A stretch of DNA of 64,000 bases from Gemmatimonadota bacterium (GCA_040882575.1 JBBEBA010000053.1:25534-89533); one strand, 5' to 3'; positions 1,640 to 9,818 are shown, counted from the stretch's first letter. Notes: generated by a model not told the origin, from the sequence alone. A program made the numbers and translations.

Positions 1640-1740
1640 TGGGTGTCCTTCGCGAACGGTGCATAATGGAGGTTAAGTGTATTACAATCAAAGTCTTGGG
1701 AAGTTCCGGTTGCCTCGCCCGCGAGCGCGCCTACCTTTAG

Positions 1741-1783
1741 GCGCAAGGTCAGGACACCGCGGCGCAAGGTTAGGACACCCGCG
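1741..1783. repeat. Tandem direct repeat, 21/22-nt unit x2 (GCGCAAGGTYAGGACACC(C)GCG)
   Basis: Read directly: gcgcaaggtcaggacaccgcg followed by gcgcaaggttaggacacccgcg. It lies in the non-coding stretch upstream (minus sense) of the metalloprotease gene, at the left edge of the lower-GC segment. Confidence 0.9.
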
Positions 1784-2187
1784 ATCGGGACGCTGATCGG
1801 GCTGGTCGGGGCAGATCTGGTCATCGCGCTGAAGGAGCCGATGTCGAACGTCGCGGCGCGGGCGTTCATGTTGGAGCGCGAGAAACGTGAGCTCCGCTTC
1901 GAGCCACTGGCACTTATCGAACGTCAGGCCCAGACGCCCTCTTCATCCCGCTCAGCCTTGGCGCAACCGCCTGCGAGCGTCTCGGCCGAGCGGGCCATCT
2001 TCTGCGGGGTGGACTGGATAGCTGCCCCACTGCGATTTCTCGTCACTCTGTCTCGTGCTCACGCAACGAGGCGGACTGCCCGCTCACGCTCCTCTGCTGA
2101 ATACTGTCATGCTCTTGATATGGCTCCAATCTCTCACGAGTTGGAACCTCCAAAACCGGGGGCGTTCAGACGCTTTCTTCACAAATC

Positions 2188-2217
2188 CCTGACAAACTCC
2201 TGACAAGGCTCTGACAT
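2188..2217 (+). repeat. Three CTGACAW motifs phased at 11-nt intervals upstream of the sigma-like gene
   Basis: Read directly: CTGACAA at 2189-2195 and 2200-2206, CTGACAT at 2211-2217. The spacing is one helical turn, ~160 nt upstream of the ATG at 2377. Confidence 0.6.
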
Positions 2218-2376
2218 TAGCATATTGCGAGAGGCTGACTTCGGCTCCAAGGTTCGAATGAGCCCCAGAGTCGTCCTGCGTTTGCCAGTCGTCGATTCTG
2301 CAATGAGGACACTCGAAAAAGAGGGGCGGTTCGTTGACATTGTCGAGGTGAACCTGTCGAACCACGGAGTCTTGAC

Positions 2377-3006
2377 ATGACGACTTGCGAAAACGGCGGG
2401 GCTTGGACGCCTGCCCGAACTTTGGAAACCGTCGCCGTCAACCGATCGGTTGGAAACCGGAAGGCTTTCCTCGCGCAGGCCGTGGGCATGGTGTCGATAC
2501 TGGCCCGCAAGTTTCCCGGCCTTGACCATGCCGATGTATGTAATGCTGTAGCCGATGCCGTTGACGAGTGGCAGTGCAAGGTCGGATCTACAGGCGCACA
2601 GCCGGACCCTCGGCATCTCCTTCATGCGGCATGGTGTAACTGCGCCAACTGTGCGCGAAGCAGTGATAGGCGGGGGCAGCGTGAACGGCGTTGGTTCGAA
2701 TCCAGTATCAGTAGTCGGGAGCGTGAATGGATGGACGCCCGCGAAATGCAGTTCGGCGTGTTTCGCCGACGCGTCGCGGAACTTATGCCGGACGACGAGA
2801 TGCGGTCAATATTTTCGTGCTGGCTAATCGGAGAGCGGGACACGCAAGTTTATGTGGAAGCGCTAGGTCTGGCCGATGCCTCTGACGACGTCCAGCATCA
2901 GTCGGTCAAGCGAGCAAAAGACCGACTAGTCAAGTTCCTCAGTCGGAGCCGGGCGGTTCGAGTTTGTAGTGATGACTACATCCGCTGGAGTTCGGTGCTG
3001 CATTGA
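2377..3006 (+). CDS. Sigma-70/ECF-like putative transcription factor with an internal Cys cluster
   Basis: 209-aa ORF with GGAG 7 nt upstream of the ATG. The N-terminal part (KAFLAQAVGMVSILARKFPGLDHADVCNAVADAVDEW) resembles sigma region 2. The C-terminal part (MRSIFSCWLIGERDTQVYVEALGLADASDDVQHQSVKRAKDRLVKFL) resembles a region-4 helix-turn-helix. HAAWCNCANC lies between them. Assignment is by eye only. Confidence 0.5.
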   Translation: MTTCENGGAWTPARTLETVAVNRSVGNRKAFLAQAVGMVSILARKFPGLDHADVCNAVADAVDEWQCKVGSTGAQPDPRHLLHAAWCNCANCARSSDRRGQRERRWFESSISSREREWMDAREMQFGVFRRRVAELMPDDEMRSIFSCWLIGERDTQVYVEALGLADASDDVQHQSVKRAKDRLVKFLSRSRAVRVCSDDYIRWSSVLH

Positions 3007-3102
3007 TGTCGAACCCAGCCCCATTGGCGGGGATTGTTGATATAGGGAGTACCAGGTGCCGCGCTCGGTGGCCCTGGAGGGCACTTGGCTCGGGAGGAAA
3101 GT

Positions 3103-3375
3103 ATGCTCGTGAATGGAATAGCTAGGCGAGCCGCTGTCGTTGCCGTCATGGCGATAGTGGCGCTCTCTACGCCGGCTCAGACGGAAGACAGTGGGGAAGC
3201 CCAGGCTGCTGGTGACTGGTGCGGGCAGTGGAAATGCGTCCACATGAAGTTGTACTGTGACGGCGAAGCAATAACGCTGTTCTGCAACGCAGTTTGCGAG
3301 GGTTGGGTGGATGCCAATTGTACTACGCATAAGTCGTGTGGGGCCGGCGAGGTGTACGTCAGGTGCAATGGATGA
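3103..3375 (+). CDS. Small secreted cysteine-rich protein (90 aa precursor, 8 Cys in the predicted mature part)
   Basis: GGAGG lies 5 nt upstream of the ATG at 3103 (the ORF-track start at 3085 is a TTG). The signal-like N-terminus is MLVNGIARRAAVVAVMAIVALSTPAQT...EAQA. The mature part is AGDWCGQWKCVHMKLYCDGEAITLFCNAVCEGWVDANCTTHKSCGAGEVYVRCNG. I recognise no family. Confidence 0.6.
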   Translation: MLVNGIARRAAVVAVMAIVALSTPAQTEDSGEAQAAGDWCGQWKCVHMKLYCDGEAITLFCNAVCEGWVDANCTTHKSCGAGEVYVRCNG

Positions 3376-3450
3376 GTTCTCCCAAATACTAGGGCTGCAA
3401 AGCGGCTGCTGCGGGGAACGATATCGGCTGAAGGGCTCTAACAGCAGAGG

Positions 3451-4140
3451 ATGCCATCCATGAAGAGCAGAGCTGAGACGCTCATGTCGGCAGTACTAAC
3501 CGTGGCCGCCGTAGTGCTAACAGGTGCGGTGCTAACGCGTGAATATGGATTCCGCTCAAATGCTGTGGGAAGTACGCCTCCTTCTGGAGAGCCAGAGCTG
3601 TACGAAGATTGGAGAGAATGGATCGCTCACGGCGAAATATCAGGAGATGACTCGGCATCGGCGATTGTCATCGAATTTGCCGATTTCGAGTGCCCTGCAT
3701 GCCGCAGATTCCATCACGCTGTCCTCACGCCTGTCAAGGATACCTTTGGCGCTTCTGTCGCAGTCGTCTTTATGCATCTCCCTCTAAGCATGCACCGCTT
3801 CGCGGAGCCCGCTGCCCGAGCGAGCGAATGTGCGTCAAATCAGGCCAGGTTCTTCCAGTTTGCTGACGTTGTGTTCGAGAAACAGGATTCCCTGGGACTA
3901 AAAACATGGTCATCCTATGCCGCCGAGGCAGGAGTTACGGACGCAGAGAGGTACTCCAACTGCGTATCGCTACAAACGTCCTTCCCCCGAATAGCCATGG
4001 GCAAGTCAATCGCCACAGAGTTGGGGATAACTGGGACTCCGACGGTTTTCATAAACGGCTGGAGATTCCCCACGCCCCCAAGTGAAGCTGAAATGGAACG
4101 CGTGATTGGGGAGATCCTGGCGGGAAGAGCGCCATTTTGA
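3451..4140 (+). CDS. Membrane-anchored DsbA-family thiol:disulfide oxidoreductase
   Basis: 229-aa ORF with an N-terminal TM helix (LMSAVLTVAAVVLTGAVL). The CxxC motif sits in a DsbA-type context: VIEFADFECPACRRFHH. An alternative ATG at 3460 has better spacing to AGAGGA. Confidence 0.75.
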   Translation: MPSMKSRAETLMSAVLTVAAVVLTGAVLTREYGFRSNAVGSTPPSGEPELYEDWREWIAHGEISGDDSASAIVIEFADFECPACRRFHHAVLTPVKDTFGASVAVVFMHLPLSMHRFAEPAARASECASNQARFFQFADVVFEKQDSLGLKTWSSYAAEAGVTDAERYSNCVSLQTSFPRIAMGKSIATELGITGTPTVFINGWRFPTPPSEAEMERVIGEILAGRAPF

Positions 4141-5369
4141 TGAACGAGATACGGAATGGCTGTCTAGCCGTGAATTACGGGTTCATTTTCCCGGGTGCTC
4201 GAGCTTGGTGGAAGGCTGGGCGCATTCTTCGGATCAGCGTCTGCCTTGCCGCTGCGGTATCAAGTATCGCTCCTCCCGCCCAAGCCCAGAGGGTGACGTC
4301 CCGCGGATCGGGCCCCCAGGCGTCTTTCGTTGAAGGCTTTACCACGATTGTAGCTGTGCGCGAGCTGACCGACGGCCGCGTCGTGATCGTCGATTCCCAC
4401 GAACGGAGGATCGCCATCCTGGATTCATCGCTAACACAACTGCGACCAGTTGGCCGACATGGTGCAGGCCCCGGAGAGTTCGAGATACCGATGGGTCTTT
4501 TCGCGCTGGTGGGTGACAGCTCCGCGGTCTACGATCCGCCGAACTCGCGCATGCTAGTCATCACCCCGGCAGGCGAGACCGGCGGCGTGCTCGGCACCCT
4601 GGGACTACCGATCGGAGAGCCCGCGCGTCTGAGCGGCGTGCATCAGCCGGCAGCGACCGACGGCTCCGGGAACTTCTACGCACAGTCAGCGGCGGGCGTG
4701 GAGGACGGTGGTACCACGCGCCACGGGCCTCTCCTGCGGTGGAACACCTCCGATCCTGACCCCGACACGGTCGCTTTGCTGCCCTTGCCGGAGCAGGGCC
4801 GAGTCATTTCGGCGCCGGGCGCGATGGTTGCAAGGCTGCCGATGCCGCTGTTTCAGCCGCGAGCCGTCTGGGCCGTCGCCCGAGACGGCCGGGTCGCGAT
4901 CGTGTTTCCGGAGCCGTATCACGTCGAGATCGTACACCCGGACGGAACCCGTCGCCGCGGAACTGCCATTCCCGTCGAGCCCCTGAAGCTCACGGACGAG
5001 CATAAGACCGAGTGGCGCAGGGAAGTTGCGAGGACGCAGCTTCGAGTCGTCGTCGCGCGCGGTGGAGGATCAGCCTACCGGACCATTTCTGAGGACGAGG
5101 TCGCGGAACCTCCGGGATGGGAGCCTTTCCTCCCGCCGTTTCTCAGCGACGCGGCCGGCTTTGCAGGCGATGGCCGATTGTGGGTCAGACGAACCACTCC
5201 GCCCGATCGCGCTGCGACGTACGACGTATTCGACGCTAACGCACGCCTCGTCGAGGTCGTGGTCCTACCGCCGAACCGCCGCCTCGCCGGCTTTGGTGCC
5301 GACGCGGTTTACCTCGTCAGGCGCGACGATTTCGACCTGGAGTACCTCGAGCGGTGGATCCTTCGCTGA
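4140..5369 (+). CDS. Secreted beta-propeller protein (NHL/6-bladed-propeller-like)
   Basis: The ATG overlaps the DsbA stop (TGATG). A hydrophobic segment ends in AAAVSSIAPPAQAQ. Repeated strand motifs follow (DGRVVIVDSHERRIAILD; GEFEIPMGLFALVGDSSAVYDPPNSRMLVITPAG; DGRVAIVFPEPYHVEIVHPDG; DGRLWVRR). The fold call is by eye only. Confidence 0.55.
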   Translation: MNEIRNGCLAVNYGFIFPGARAWWKAGRILRISVCLAAAVSSIAPPAQAQRVTSRGSGPQASFVEGFTTIVAVRELTDGRVVIVDSHERRIAILDSSLTQLRPVGRHGAGPGEFEIPMGLFALVGDSSAVYDPPNSRMLVITPAGETGGVLGTLGLPIGEPARLSGVHQPAATDGSGNFYAQSAAGVEDGGTTRHGPLLRWNTSDPDPDTVALLPLPEQGRVISAPGAMVARLPMPLFQPRAVWAVARDGRVAIVFPEPYHVEIVHPDGTRRRGTAIPVEPLKLTDEHKTEWRREVARTQLRVVVARGGGSAYRTISEDEVAEPPGWEPFLPPFLSDAAGFAGDGRLWVRRTTPPDRAATYDVFDANARLVEVVVLPPNRRLAGFGADAVYLVRRDDFDLEYLERWILR

Positions 5370-5390
5370 TCCCGAGGAATGCTCTATACC

Positions 5391-5430
5391 TGCGCCTCCG
5401 AGCCTCCGCGTGCGCCTCCGAGCCTCCGCG
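5391..5430. repeat. Perfect tandem duplication of a 20-nt unit (TGCGCCTCCGAGCCTCCGCG x2) followed by TGTTTTTG
   Basis: Read directly, 22 nt after the stop of the beta-propeller gene. An AT-richer non-coding stretch follows, up to ~5650. Confidence 0.9.
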
Positions 5431-5653
5431 TGTTTTTGATCTGGCTGTACCGTCTTTGGTTTACATCTCCTCCAAGCATTTACGATTCGTCAGAATCGCC
5501 CACCTATTCTATATAGCAGCCCCCACTCAATTGGGTCGGTAGTATAGAGTGCGGTCACTCTCTTGAACCATTTGTCCCCTGAAGCGTACTCGATCGGCAG
5601 CTTATCAACGGGGGCACCTTTCCCGGTTAATTTCAGTCCACCACGGAGTCATC

Positions 5654-7063
5654 GTGCCCCCACAGCTGGCGCTCCTCTTAATGGTGAGCGACTCGAAGAA
5701 CCTGCCGGCGGCCGTCCGGTCGGCCGAGCGGCAGGTGCGCCACTGGGGAGACAGCTTCGGTGGCGACCCGGCTGACCCCGCGACGTGGGAATGGACGCGC
5801 GGCGCGAGTGCCGTGACGGCCGTCATCGACCTGCATCCGCCCGACCGGGCACGAGCCGCGCTCGCGGCGATCCGGCGCGTCCGTCCGGATGCCGCGGTGC
5901 TGCTGCTGTCGCAGGACGTCGCGGACGTGGACGGACCCGGCGACGGCACCCTGGCGCGGTCGGGCGGCCTGCGCGATGTCGTGCGACTCGATCTCGAGGA
6001 GGAGCTCGCGCGGCTGGAGGCGGAGCGGAGGGGCTACTGCCTGCGCGAGTTCGCCGCAGGCGACGATGTGGTGCCGATCCTGATCCACGATGATCCGGAT
6101 CCGGACGCCATGTCGAGCGCGCTCGCGGTGCGCGCTCTGATCGGCGGAACGCCGGAGCGGATGCCGATCGTGACGCTGGAGGAAGTGACCCGTCCGGAAA
6201 ACCGTCGCATGGCGGATCTGCTGCACATCAGGGTGACGCGCGTCACGTGCGACGAGCTGCGCCAGTTCGACCGGGTGATCACCGTCGATACGCAGCCGCG
6301 CGGACTGCAGCAGGACGGGAGGCCCCGGCTCGCCGTGATCGATCATCATCCGGCCGAGAACAGCTACGCGGCAGAGTTCCGCGACATACGCCCGCACTAC
6401 GGCGCCACGGCGACAATGCTGACGGAGTACCTGCGTGCGGCGTCGGGCATTCGCGTGCGTGGCAACCTCGCGACGGCGCTGCTCTACGGCATCAGGACGG
6501 ACACCGACTCGCTCGCGCGCGGCGTCACGCCCGCCGACGTCGCGGCGTACGCGTACCTGCAGGAGCACGCCGATGTCGATCTGATCAAGCGCTTCGAGCG
6601 GCCCAGCTACACGCTTGCGACGGCCCGTTCTTTCGCCGACGCGCTGCGCTCAGCCGAGTGCGACGAGGATCTGTGCGTCGCGTACGTCGGCGAGCTGCAG
6701 CCGCATGAGGCGCACGTCCTGGCCGACCTGGCCGACTTCTGTCTGGGCATCGAAAACATCACGTGGGTGGCGGTGGCCGCCGAGCTCGAAGGCGAGCTGG
6801 TGCTCACACTGCGGCACACGGGCAGCGACCCTGGCGCGGGCGGTGTCGCGCGCGCGCTCGCTTCGTTGCACGGCGGATCCGGCGGTGGACACGCGACCAT
6901 GGCCAGAGTTGCGATACCGGCAGATCGGGCGCGCACGATCCTGGATGGCGAGGAGATGGCGACTGCGGTACGGCGGCTGATTCGCGAGGCGATACGTCAT
7001 GCGGCCGGCGAATCCGCAGAGCGGTCTACTCGTCGAGATTCACCCCAAGCTCGTCCGGCGTGA
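5654..7063 (+). CDS. DHH-family phosphoesterase (NrnA/RecJ-like core) with a ~150-aa N-terminal extension
   Basis: 469-aa ORF with a GTG start. DHH motifs are ILIHDDPDPDAMSSALA, VIDHHP and TDTDS. The DHHA1 GGGH motif is present (LHGGSGGGHATMA). The N-terminal ~150 aa are unassigned. Confidence 0.8.
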   Translation: MPPQLALLLMVSDSKNLPAAVRSAERQVRHWGDSFGGDPADPATWEWTRGASAVTAVIDLHPPDRARAALAAIRRVRPDAAVLLLSQDVADVDGPGDGTLARSGGLRDVVRLDLEEELARLEAERRGYCLREFAAGDDVVPILIHDDPDPDAMSSALAVRALIGGTPERMPIVTLEEVTRPENRRMADLLHIRVTRVTCDELRQFDRVITVDTQPRGLQQDGRPRLAVIDHHPAENSYAAEFRDIRPHYGATATMLTEYLRAASGIRVRGNLATALLYGIRTDTDSLARGVTPADVAAYAYLQEHADVDLIKRFERPSYTLATARSFADALRSAECDEDLCVAYVGELQPHEAHVLADLADFCLGIENITWVAVAAELEGELVLTLRHTGSDPGAGGVARALASLHGGSGGGHATMARVAIPADRARTILDGEEMATAVRRLIREAIRHAAGESAERSTRRDSPQARPA

Positions 7064-7673: not shown

Positions 7674-9818
7674 TCAGTATGCGGCGAGCTCGTCGATGGC
7701 CGCGACGATGTCGTGGGTCTGCGGCAGGATCACGTCTTCGAGCTGCGGTGCATATGCCACCCAGGTGTCCATGGATGCGACGCGACGGACGGGCCCGTCG
7801 AGGTGCTCGAAGAGGTCGCTCGCGATGCGTGCCACGATCTCGGAGCCGATGCCCCACGACAGTGAGTCTTCGTGCGCGACGATGACCTTGCCCGTCTTGC
7901 GCACGGATGCGGCGATGGTGTCCATGTCGAGCGGGTTGAGCGAGCGGAGGTCGATCACCTCGACACTGATGCCGCGTTCCCCCGCGATGCGTGCTGCATC
8001 GAGCGAGCGCTTCACGACGGCGCCGCAGGTGATCACCGACAGGTCCGTGCCCTCCCGCACCACGGTCGCGCTGCCGAACGGGATCATGAAGTCGGGGCCC
8101 GGGTTCCGCCCCTTGTTGTAGACCTGCCGGTATAGATGCTTGTGCTCGAGGAAAATCACCGGATCCTCCGAGCGTATTGCGGTGCGGAGCAGGCCGTTCG
8201 CATCGAGCGCCGTGGCTGGCAGCACGACGCGCAGACCGGGCGTGTGGGTGAACAGCGTCTCGCCCGTCTGCGAGTGATAGATCGCGCCGCCCTTGAGGTA
8301 GCCGCCGTACGCGACGCGGATAACCACCGGGCACCACCAGTTGCCGCCGGAGCGGTAGCGCATGGTCGCGAGCTCGTCGCGGATCTGCATCATCGCCGGC
8401 CAGATGTAGTCGAAGAACTGGATCTCGACGACCGGCTTCAGGCCGCGTACGGCCATACCGATGGCGCGCCCGACTATGTTCGCCTCGGCGAGCGGCGTGT
8501 TGAACACGCGGTTCGAGCCAAATTTCCGCTGCAGGCCCCAGGTGCATTTGAAGACGCCGCCCTTGCCCTTCACTTCCTCGAGGGACGCTTCGCGGCTGCA
8601 GTCGGCGACGTCCTGGCCGAATACGACGATGCGCGGATCGCGCTGCATCTCGTCGCGAATGGCGACATTGATGAGATCGACCATGGTCGTCTCACCGCCC
8701 GCGAACTGCGGATCATCCTCCGTGTCGAAATCCGAAGACGTTGGATCGACGTTCGGCGAGAACAGGTGGTCGAGCGCAGTTTCGGGCGCCGGCTGCGGCA
8801 TTGCGATCGCGCGATCCGATGCGCCACGAACGTCCTCATCGACCTGCTTCTCGAGCGCGTCGAGCTCGGCCGCGGTCGCAATGCCCAGCTCGATGAGATC
8901 CCGTCGCGCGACGACGATCGGGTCCTGCTCCGCGTCCAGGCTGCGCTCCGACTCCGGGCGGTACAGCCGCTCGTCATCCGACATCGAGTGCGAGTACGGC
9001 CGCACCACGTGCGCGTGCAGCAGGGCAGGACCTTTCCGCTCGCGCGCGTACGCGACAGCGCGGCCGCAGGCTTCCCAGCTCTCGGTCAGACGCGTACCGT
9101 CGAACTCCTCGATGTACAGGTCCGGGAAGCCGGTGAGCAGTGCGCTGATGTTCCCGCCAGCCGTGCCCACCTCGACCGGCACCGAGATCGCATAGCCGTT
9201 GTCCTGGATCAGGAACACGACAGGCAGCTTCAGGTTCGTCGCCGTATTGAGCGCTTCCCAGAACTCGCCCTCCGATGTCTGGCCCTCGCCCGACGTGCAC
9301 AGCACGACCTCGTCCCTGGCGAATCCGGCGATGGCCGCGCTCATCGCTTCATCGCGCCCCGCACGCATGCCGGACTCCGCGCAGCCGACCGCCTGCAGGT
9401 ACTGCGTGCCGGTCGGCGATGACGTCGATGCGATGCGCAGCTCGCGGCTGCTCCAGTGTGACGGCATCTGACGCCCGCCACTCGCCGGATCCGCTGCGGC
9501 GCCGACCGCCTGCAGCAGCTGGTCGTACGGCGTTACGCCCAGCGCCTGGCTGAGTGCACGATCACGGTAGTAGAGGTAGAACCAGTCGGAGCCCGGACGC
9601 AGGTGTGCCGCCACTGCGACCTGCACTGCCTCATGGCCGGCGCCCGAGATCTGGAAGAAGATCCGGTTCTGTCGCTTGAGCAGGATCTCCTGATCGTCCG
9701 TCCGACGCGCCGCGACCATGGTGCGGTACATCGCGATGAGGCGGTCGCCGCTCAACACGCCGCGCCCCATCGTTCCGACGCTCTTCCGAGCGGCCTCCTT
9801 CTTCGTCTTTGCAGGCAT
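7674..9818 (-). CDS. 2-oxoacid dehydrogenase E1 component, fused alpha/beta subunits (TPP-dependent)
   Basis: 714-aa ORF. The N-terminal half is E1-alpha-like ([26 protein letters not shown]...[17 protein letters not shown]). The C-terminal half is E1-beta/transketolase-like ([36 protein letters not shown]...). Confidence 0.9.

Follow-up and report, generated by a model that had tools for sequence, protein, structure and literature searches.

A low-GC gene cassette of a Gemmatimonadota bacterium pairs a predicted disulfide-rich mini-protein with an accessory DsbA-family protein

The stretch analysed here, 64,000 nucleotides from a Gemmatimonadota bacterium (GCA_040882575.1 JBBEBA010000053.1:25534-89533; hereafter the window), contains a low-GC cassette of four open reading frames (ORFs), ORF1 to ORF4 (Table 1). 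We propose, with a probability of roughly 0.6, that this cassette is an accessory, probably laterally acquired operon whose conserved core is an oxidative-folding pair, made up of ORF2, the putative precursor of an exported mini-protein with eight cysteines, and ORF3, a membrane-anchored DsbA-like protein. A preliminary description of the same DNA, made from the sequence alone, had placed four co-directional genes in an AT-richer segment and had the last two overlapping by TGATG. Both features are borne out: all four ORFs lie on the plus strand, the 1-kb intervals starting at 2000-3500 have 56-58% GC and are the only ones below 60% (mean of the 64 kb, 67.5%, standard deviation 2.7), and the stop codon of ORF3 (TGA, 4138-4140) shares base 4140 with the ATG of ORF4. 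This overlap, the short same-strand spacers and a strong Shine-Dalgarno sequence ahead of ORF2 are the signals of an operon.

The recurrence of the pair in other genomes carries this proposal. A search from the DsbA side, using one genome per GTDB species, gave 80 loci, each taken as a 10-kb stretch. At 17 of the 19 closest (L010-L027 and L031), a small gene adjoins the DsbA gene on the same strand, either upstream or downstream, and encodes a protein of 77-113 aa with a signal-peptide-like leader and 5-8 cysteines, nearly always 6 or 8. The same crude small-ORF detector has a background of 0.059 per comparable slot, and a credible adjacent small Cys ORF is present at none of the 25 core-DsbA loci that served as controls; detections at three more distant loci (L035, L037 and L055) were rejected by composition as alternative-frame artefacts. 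The small exported Cys-rich gene and the anchored CPAC DsbA gene thus form a conserved co-directional pair, and the synteny in other genomes whose absence the preliminary description had named beforehand as refuting is found. Carriers are Gemmatimonadota together with a few Steroidobacter-like and other Gammaproteobacteria, in which the cysteine spacing differs. Two or three small Cys genes are present in L022, L015 and L026, and the module is lower in GC than its flanks at 14 of 16 loci, by a mean of 4.9 points. We found no description of such a mini-protein/DsbA pair in the literature.

The same association is seen from the side of ORF2, whose product comprises a basic and hydrophobic leader followed by a mature part of ~63 aa with eight cysteines, the cleavage site having been placed heuristically between AQT and ED near residue 27. 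When 1.84 billion representative proteins were scanned in full with HMMER, ORF2 itself and five small homologues (86-92 aa) were returned; at ~35% identity, these homologues retain the leader and the eight cysteines, spaced C-x4-C-x6-C-x8-C-x3-C-x7-C-x5-C-x8-C. This retention shows that ORF2 is a real gene. A word-indexed homologue search returned only ORF2, and a metagenome collection scanned with the small-protein alignment gave no relative. The five homologues lie on contigs of only 0.7-1.3 kb, four of which extend downstream of the small gene; in three of these (L005, L006 and L008), an ORF3-like anchored DsbA is the next gene. The DsbA of L006 has a CTYC motif and is 36% identical to ORF3 (E = 1e-21), and that of L008 shares the N-terminal anchor and carries a PEFYPGWQDW motif. 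At the fourth, L004, the N-terminus of an IS630-like transposase (helix-turn-helix; 602-1054) stands in place of the DsbA directly downstream of the small Cys gene, which suggests an insertion into the module. In the GenBank record of the metagenome-assembled genome, ORF2 seems to be unannotated, its only source being the Logan assembly: the tags WEF86_08970 (ORF1) and WEF86_08980 (ORF4) leave a single slot (08975) for two genes.

The earlier statement that no described family covers the mini-protein agrees with our searches, in which the mini-proteins have no match in Pfam, NCBIfam, PHROGs, PADLOC or the PDB; this includes ten diverse mini-proteins compared with Pfam and NCBIfam, and the profile of the mini-protein family compared with the PDB. 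Of 24 mature peptides, 23 have an even number of cysteines (6 or 8), and a C-x3-C-x7-C core is common to those from Gemmatimonadota. All but one of the 24 are acidic, with a mean net charge of -5.9 (-5 for ORF2) and a pI of ~4.1, and they are rich in aromatic residues. Outside the cysteines, the median identity of the mature mini-proteins is 9%, as compared with 40% over ~212 aligned residues for their DsbA partners (16 module loci).

An AlphaFold2 (AF2) model of ORF2, built from a six-sequence alignment, has a predicted local distance difference test score (pLDDT) of ~80 for residues 40-90, where the order of elements is strand-helix-strand-strand, with C61-x3-C65, a CxxxC motif, in the predicted helix 54-64. 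The top Foldseek matches of this model are defensins, none of them significant: AtD90 (7jn6, E = 0.89), OsAFP1 (6lcq), eurocin (2lt8) and 2kpy, with E = 0.89-4.4 and template-modelling (TM) scores of 0.39-0.61 normalised to the target. No significant match was obtained in the viral structure library BFVD. Because the defensin signatures are absent, CxC being missing from ORF2 and from the whole family and GxC not being conserved, the likeness to defensins is a resemblance and not membership. Amidation of the peptide by a PAL-like propeller, considered because ORF2 ends in Gly, was ruled out since the C-terminal Gly is not conserved.

ORF3 had been described as a membrane-anchored, CPAC-containing DsbA-like protein, and this assignment is firm. 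The protein has a single N-terminal hydrophobic helix and matches Pfam Thioredoxin_4 (PF13462) at 82.4 bits (cutoff 23.2; 5.6e-23) and DSBA (PF01323) at 30.4 bits (cutoff 25.6). Its best match in the PDB is an actinobacterial DsbA (4pwo, E = 1.8e-12, residues 68-208), in which CPFC aligns to CPAC and GTPA to GTPT of ORF3; Wolbachia DsbA1 (3f4r) and Bacillus subtilis BdbD (3eu3) also match, and ScsC proteins do so more weakly (6nen at 1.7e-5, 6mhh and 4xvw). Two cysteines are present besides those of CPAC, and the clade keeps a CxxC motif as CTYC, CPFC, CPVC or CSYC. We therefore regard ORF3, judging by these matches, as a genuine member of the DsbA family.

A comparison with the 25 more distant Gemmatimonadota DsbA loci used as controls indicates which DsbA this is. 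Synteny around these genes is strongly conserved, with a VKOR gene (97.8 bits) directly downstream of the DsbA gene and genes for an acetyl-CoA synthetase and a CDP-alcohol phosphatidyltransferase close by. Neither the module loci nor the 64-kb window contains a VKOR, DsbB not having been searched for. Because VKOR synteny is found at 14 control loci and at no module locus, the DsbA proteins of Gemmatimonadota appear to be of two types, one core and paired with VKOR, the other accessory and moving together with a small Cys-rich gene. On this evidence ORF3 is best classed as an accessory paralogue, in a clade distinct from that of the core DsbA-VKOR proteins.

The companion genes vary more than the pair. 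The 110 homologues of ORF4 come almost exclusively from Gemmatimonadota, and several carry the 6-bladed beta-propeller domain PF17170 (P0003, P0011 and P0019, 38-41% identical); ORF4 itself has no Pfam match above cutoff and a weak NHL-type match at residues 66-147. Its identification as a ScyF/scytonemin protein was rejected, the NCBIfam ScyF NHL profile scoring 22.7 bits against a cutoff of 350. Of 14 Gemmatimonadota module loci, 7 have an ORF4-like propeller gene within the 10 kb, often as the next gene after that for DsbA, and none of the 25 controls has one (p = 2e-4). The preliminary description had suggested the propeller as a partner of the small protein, and its recurrence beside the pair agrees with this. 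A part as oxidase client is not indicated: because no cysteine follows the leader, ORF4 is predicted not to be a client of the oxidase. ORF4 homologues also occupy many loci without the pair, so that the propeller is an optional companion and not part of the core. A secreted CarboxypepD_reg (plus Plug-like) protein takes the same position at 5 of 14 module loci and at none of the 25 controls (p = 0.003). These proteins (Table 1) have a C-terminal Plug-like domain and a conserved Cys pair (...C..Y(L/I)DG... and ...CG.L..WT(R/K)), and they could be further clients of the oxidase. At a separate locus, L003 (3917-7107), tandem ORF4-family propeller genes follow a canonical extracytoplasmic function (ECF) sigma gene and an 80-aa ORF, with BlaI/BlaR-like genes (Penicillinase_R, Peptidase_M56) upstream.

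ORF1 is an orphan by sequence, the sole member of its cluster. An ORF of 209 codons is improbable by chance in DNA of 58% GC. The preliminary description had called ORF1 sigma-70-like, and this becomes plausible through its relatives only. ORF1 alone has no match in Pfam, NCBIfam, PHROGs, PADLOC or the PDB (phmmer), hhalign gives it a 0.2% probability against sigma factors, which is not significant with the three closest relatives either, and its single-sequence AF2 model has a pLDDT of 42.6. An iterative search of the loci found relatives at L026 (two copies) and L020 (one, after the DsbA gene). L026 holds two modules separated by a 703-aa protein: the first (4252-6118) consists of the sigma-like gene, a DsbA gene and an 8-Cys small gene, and the second (8808-9815) of a near-duplicate of the sigma-like gene followed by a different, 6-Cys small gene, in the same order as in the window. 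A metagenome scan added five more distant relatives (L090-L094), two of which reach the Pfam Sigma70_r2 cutoff of 24 (L090, 29.0 bits; L091, 24.0 bits). The resulting eight-sequence family profile aligns to an ECF sigma alignment with 79% probability (E = 1.5e-5) over 173 columns spanning the sigma-2 and sigma-4 regions; that alignment consists of two sequences from the loci and those of Escherichia coli RpoE and B. subtilis SigW. The best PDB hit is the ECF sigma factor SigK (4nqw, E = 0.042). It is plausible, then, that ORF1 is a highly divergent ECF-sigma-like protein. The HxxxCxCxxC cluster that the preliminary description had attributed to the regulator is conserved in no relative, the corresponding positions being R, I/M/L and H/R/L, and therefore a redox-sensing regulator is not indicated. 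No anti-sigma domain is found in ORF2 or ORF3; only ~8 residues precede the hydrophobic segment of ORF2, and the N-terminus of ORF3 is similarly short. In L090-L094 the sigma-like gene heads a string (for example L091 3539-8145) that continues with a ~125-aa protein, an ImmA/IrrE peptidase (Peptidase_M78), a ~440-aa protein and a HerA/DUF87 ATPase, which suggests that the distant relatives are a sigma family of mobile or defence-type elements.

A possible regulatory element is the 8-mer GTCGAACC, found between ORF1 and ORF2 (Table 1) and again in the window at 2356-2363, in L004 at 72-79 and in L007 at 123-130. In three loci it precedes the small Cys gene, against ~0.05 matches expected, and in L004 and L007 it closes a conserved block of ~75 nt. 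Judging by this placement, GTCGAACC may be a promoter element for the ORF1-type sigma factor or part of a small RNA; Rfam gave no match in the window. The family HMM ruled out that the block upstream of the small genes in L004 and L007 is a remnant of ORF1.

The composition of the cassette, about 10 points lower in GC than the rest of the window, extends to third codon positions, where GC is 0.56-0.63 in ORF1-3, 0.72 in ORF4 and 0.83-0.86 in the flanking genes. For two genes we adopted starts other than those of the longest ORF: for ORF2, which could open at TTG 3085, ATG 3103 is likelier, with GGGAGG 6-7 nt upstream, and for ORF3, whose longest ORF begins at 3451, ATG 3460 is likelier, as it agrees with the MK.. 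start of the homologues and with the length of 226 aa called by Logan. The island has no detected integrase or tRNA gene and is not flanked by direct repeats. A tRNA-like GGTTCGA near 2250, seen also upstream of the small genes of L004 and L007, had pointed to an integration site, which was discarded as ARAGORN reports no tRNA or tmRNA and there are no flanking direct repeats. A phage, plasmid or defence-system origin was likewise rejected, PHROGs, PADLOC and tblastn against phage and plasmid collections all being negative. Terminator-like sites are no commoner than in shuffled sequences.

Table 1. Coordinates of the cassette, its surroundings and comparable genes at other loci (positions are those of the window or, where a locus is named, of that locus)
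Feature	Position	Strand	Size	Description
ORF1	2377-3006	+	209 aa	Putative regulator, plausibly divergent ECF-sigma-like
GTCGAACC	3008-3015	+	8-mer	Just past the ORF1 stop, 95 nt upstream of the ORF2 ATG
ORF2	3103-3375	+	90 aa	Precursor of predicted 8-Cys acidic disulfide-rich mini-protein; leader 3103-3183, mature part 3184-3372
ORF3	3460-4140	+	226 aa	DsbA-family protein; anchor ~3481-3537, CPAC 3691-3702, GTPT cis-Pro loop
ORF4	4140-5369	+	409 aa	Predicted exported beta-propeller protein, family near PF17170/NHL
Low-GC island	1700-5650			Contains the cassette; defined by GC profile and flanking genes
Lipoprotein gene	window start (runs off) to ~1640	-		High GC, divergent; left border of the island
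DHH/DHHA1 phosphoesterase gene	5654-7063			Right border of the island
CarboxypepD_reg proteins after accessory DsbA	L010 5941-8508; L012 5616-6488; L015 8299-9255; L021 5604-8048; L027 5567-6982
VKOR after core DsbA (14 loci)	~5450-6150 in most			L035, L036, L040, L044, L049, L054, L060, L066, L073, L075, L076, L080, L085, L088

Three further features of the window were recorded. A 20-nt unit, TGCGCCTCCGAGCCTCCGCG, is perfectly duplicated in tandem at 5391-5430, 22 nt past the ORF4 stop, and the AT-rich, gene-free stretch that follows runs to ~5650, the right edge of the low-GC island. At 1740-1779, in the divergent intergenic region upstream of the minus-strand lipoprotein gene, the 19-nt unit GGCGCAAGGTCAGGACACC occurs twice in tandem with a spacing of 21. 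On the minus strand, an ORF of 714 aa (7674-9818) has halves that resemble, by translation only, E1 alpha and E1 beta of 2-oxoacid dehydrogenase, which suggests a fused E1 gene.

Based on the above data, we propose the following mechanism. The 90-aa ORF2 precursor would be exported by Sec and lose its leader near residue 27, after which ORF3, held at the outer surface of the cytoplasmic membrane by its one N-terminal helix, would form four disulfides in the acidic mature chain of ~63 aa. Having no quinone-linked partner of its own, ORF3 would presumably be re-oxidised by the housekeeping VKOR beside the core DsbA. The product would be a compact beta-alpha-beta-beta mini-protein whose cysteine framework is kept while its surface is almost wholly changed between relatives. 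Because the framework alone is conserved and the surface is hypervariable, a binding role under diversifying pressure appears likely, the mini-protein serving in an arms race as an inhibitor, decoy, ligand or antagonistic effector and not as an enzyme or metal site. ORF4, translationally coupled to ORF3, would be an optional extracytoplasmic partner, replaced elsewhere by a CarboxypepD_reg protein, and the degenerate ECF-sigma-like ORF1 may switch the operon on. What the data establish directly are the four genes with their domains, the recurrent pairing of ORF2 and ORF3, the variability of the mini-protein, the division of DsbA into core and accessory types and the enrichment of the companion genes. 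From these we infer that ORF2 is the client of ORF3, which way the redox reaction runs, that VKOR re-oxidises ORF3, that the genes are co-transcribed, and what ORF1 regulates and the mini-protein targets.

Several observations weigh against this proposal. Its support is drawn from sequence comparison, and the client relationship from the adjacency of the genes. Two close DsbA loci, L013 and L020, have no small gene, and the DsbA of L005 (965-1327) has lost the CxxC region to an internal deletion but kept the anchor and the C-terminal half, as could result from decay of the gene copy or from misassembly. The type of CxxC motif (CPAC; CTYC, CPVC and CSYC in relatives) and the Thr-cisPro loop cannot separate an oxidase from an isomerase or reductase. 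The overall pLDDT of the ORF2 model, based on six sequences, is a moderate 69. An ORF1-type gene is present in only 3 of ~20 module loci (the window, L020 and L026), and a promoter scan found no promoter-like site. Finally, the host is diderm, so that a Sec leader reaches the periplasm only, and an outer-membrane route is not encoded here.

As a secreted defensin-like antimicrobial or bacteriocin, the mini-protein would kill competitors, with ORF3 as the maturation oxidase as in some Gram-positive bacteriocin loci. This role, raised in the preliminary description, would account for a hypervariable surface on a fixed disulfide scaffold, for the CxxxC in a predicted helix, for best (non-significant) Foldseek matches among plant and fungal defensins and for an accessory, low-GC module, and there are precedent loci with an oxidoreductase of their own (PedC, PMC4919988; bdbA/bdbB, PMC4336743) or a DsbA-dependent product (EntV, PMC6606811). 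It fits poorly with the acidity of the mature peptides, which are unlike membrane-active antimicrobial peptides. Moreover, no immunity gene, exporter or outer-membrane route is encoded, the CxC and GxC signatures are missing and the fold match is non-significant (E = 0.89), and the only bacterial class II defensin tested had no antimicrobial activity (PMC11561630). We consider an antimicrobial of this kind unlikely. A classical cationic antimicrobial peptide, in particular, is improbable in a diderm host for a product that is acidic and comes with neither an exporter nor an immunity gene. The acidity and the periplasmic destination implied by a Sec leader without further export machinery would suit a protective inhibitor or immunity protein that acts in the periplasm to block a basic toxin or enzyme entering from outside (for instance a protease, a lysozyme or an effector that hydrolyses peptidoglycan), ORF3 serving just to fold it. 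Hypervariability is expected of binders in an arms race, the peptides are aromatic-rich as well as uniformly acidic, and they are encoded in accessory low-GC islands. Tandem or multiple small genes are a feature of immunity-gene arrays, and L022, L015 and L026 have them. With no cognate toxin gene close by, no similarity to known inhibitor or immunity families in Pfam, NCBIfam, PADLOC or the PDB, and the linked propeller, CarboxypepD_reg and sigma-like genes left unexplained, we judge this version, too, rather improbable as it stands. An antagonistic effector or a protective periplasmic inhibitor are nonetheless the main options for the function of the mini-protein.

The cysteine content and the ScsC-type matches of ORF3 (6nen at 1.7e-5, 6mhh, 4xvw), together with its Thr-cisPro loop, would also suit a redox or metal-handling pair, in which the Cys-rich protein is a thiol buffer or a copper- or metal-binding partner of an ScsC-like reductase or isomerase. 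Such a role is disfavoured because there are no conserved metal motifs, be it CxxC, His or Met. The even, spaced cysteine framework is what structural disulfides usually show, secondary structure is regular in the confidently modelled AF2 core, the ScsC matches are weaker than those to actinobacterial DsbA oxidases, and no DsbD/ScsB-type supplier of reductant is among the families that recur across loci; we find it very unlikely. That the cassette is no functional unit at all, with ORF2 spurious or its adjacency to a housekeeping DsbA coincidental, is hardly credible. High-GC genomes do yield many spurious ORFs, and ORF2 is apparently unannotated in GenBank, with Logan as its sole source. Against this stand the leader and eight cysteines kept at ~35% identity, the pairing at 17 of 19 loci against 0.059 per slot, the strong Shine-Dalgarno sequence ahead of ORF2 and the placement of ORF3 in a clade apart from the core DsbA-VKOR proteins.

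The oxidative-folding pair that we propose has parallels among known systems. DsbL/DsbI serve arylsulfate sulfotransferase (ASST) in uropathogenic E. coli and Salmonella, SrgA serves PefA/Pef fimbriae, and the assT-dsbL-dsbI operon also encodes a beta-propeller protein. Accessory DsbA paralogues such as DsbL and the plasmid-borne SrgA are a trait of multi-DsbA bacteria (PMC6067686). Like them, ORF3 is a second DsbA besides the housekeeping one, encoded in an accessory locus beside its presumed substrate. Unlike them, it is membrane-anchored in the manner of actinobacterial MdbA rather than soluble, and the presumed client is a hypervariable mini-protein of ~60 aa and not an enzyme or a pilin. 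The module also differs from DsbL/DsbI in having no VKOR-type re-oxidant and no recurrent polytopic membrane-protein family, and from the ASST system in that its propeller is Cys-free and hence not a client. The closest solved relatives of ORF3 are actinobacterial (4pwo), and its single N-terminal anchor and the adjacency of the Gemmatimonadota core DsbA to VKOR recall the actinobacterial MdbA/VKOR system for oxidative folding (PMC5478893, PMC9974433). MdbA, however, is an essential general oxidase, whereas ORF3 belongs to an accessory clade without VKOR and has a dedicated neighbour.

In bacteriocin loci, too, a small exported disulfide peptide can be encoded next to a thioredoxin-fold protein, as in the sublancin locus sunA-sunT-bdbA-sunS-bdbB (PMC4336743) or with PedC for pediocin (PMC4919988), and Enterococcus EntV needs DsbA (PMC6606811). 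Those loci are Gram-positive, with ABC/peptidase exporters, immunity genes and usually cationic peptides with one or two disulfides, whereas the module has a Sec leader, three or four predicted disulfides, an acidic product and a diderm host, with no exporter or immunity gene detected. The only families that recur across module loci are DsbA, the propeller and CarboxypepD_reg. As the preliminary description had held, no machinery for ribosomally synthesised and post-translationally modified peptides was detected: the four cassette proteins have no Pfam or NCBIfam match to a radical-SAM or lanthionine enzyme, an immunity protein or a peptidase-ABC exporter, and none of these is among the recurrent families, not every neighbouring ORF having been profile-scanned. 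Five classes of bacterial defensins have been proposed, in a survey whose reported sources do not include Gemmatimonadota and which mentions no linkage to DsbA (PMC11561630). The mini-proteins resemble cis-defensins in their signal peptide, a mature part of ~50-60 aa, 6-8 cysteines, the beta-alpha-beta-beta prediction and the CxxxC in the helix, and differ from them in being strongly acidic and lacking the last-strand CxC and a conserved GxC. As for ORF1, its family profile spans the sigma-2 and sigma-4 regions of ECF (group 4) sigma-70 factors and two relatives pass Sigma70_r2, but ORF1 itself is below detection, no anti-sigma gene is adjacent, and its more canonical relatives are found in operons with an ImmA/IrrE peptidase and a HerA-like ATPase. 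That a private DsbA can serve a private client is a known principle; the client family, the VKOR-less anchored paralogue, the spread in Gemmatimonadota and the companion genes are new.

A wider and more tentative reading, which we would sooner doubt than adopt but hold to be possible, is that the small genes represent a widespread and so far unrecognised class of anionic, hypervariable mini-proteins of defensin-like topology, each with a private membrane oxidase. They would act as diversifying extracellular or periplasmic effectors of soil Gemmatimonadota and Steroidobacter-like Gammaproteobacteria, with the propeller or CarboxypepD_reg protein used for delivery, as a receptor or in target binding, and an ECF-like sigma factor of mobile-element type as the switch. 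If this is true, such a class would give bacteria an equivalent of the toxin and defensin scaffolds of animals.

The case also illustrates a gap in annotation, since ORF2 seems to be missing from the public record and has only five relatives among 1.84 billion representatives. The two-tier disulfide system of Gemmatimonadota extends the multi-DsbA concept past pathogens. Should the pairing prove functional, stable bacterial mini-proteins of ~50-65 aa, with three or four disulfides and a surface free to evolve on a fixed scaffold, would constitute a new family, each member accompanied by its own folding enzyme. The pairing would then offer a scaffold-plus-foldase pair for use in peptide engineering, and a lead to new inhibitors or antagonistic molecules in an almost unstudied phylum.

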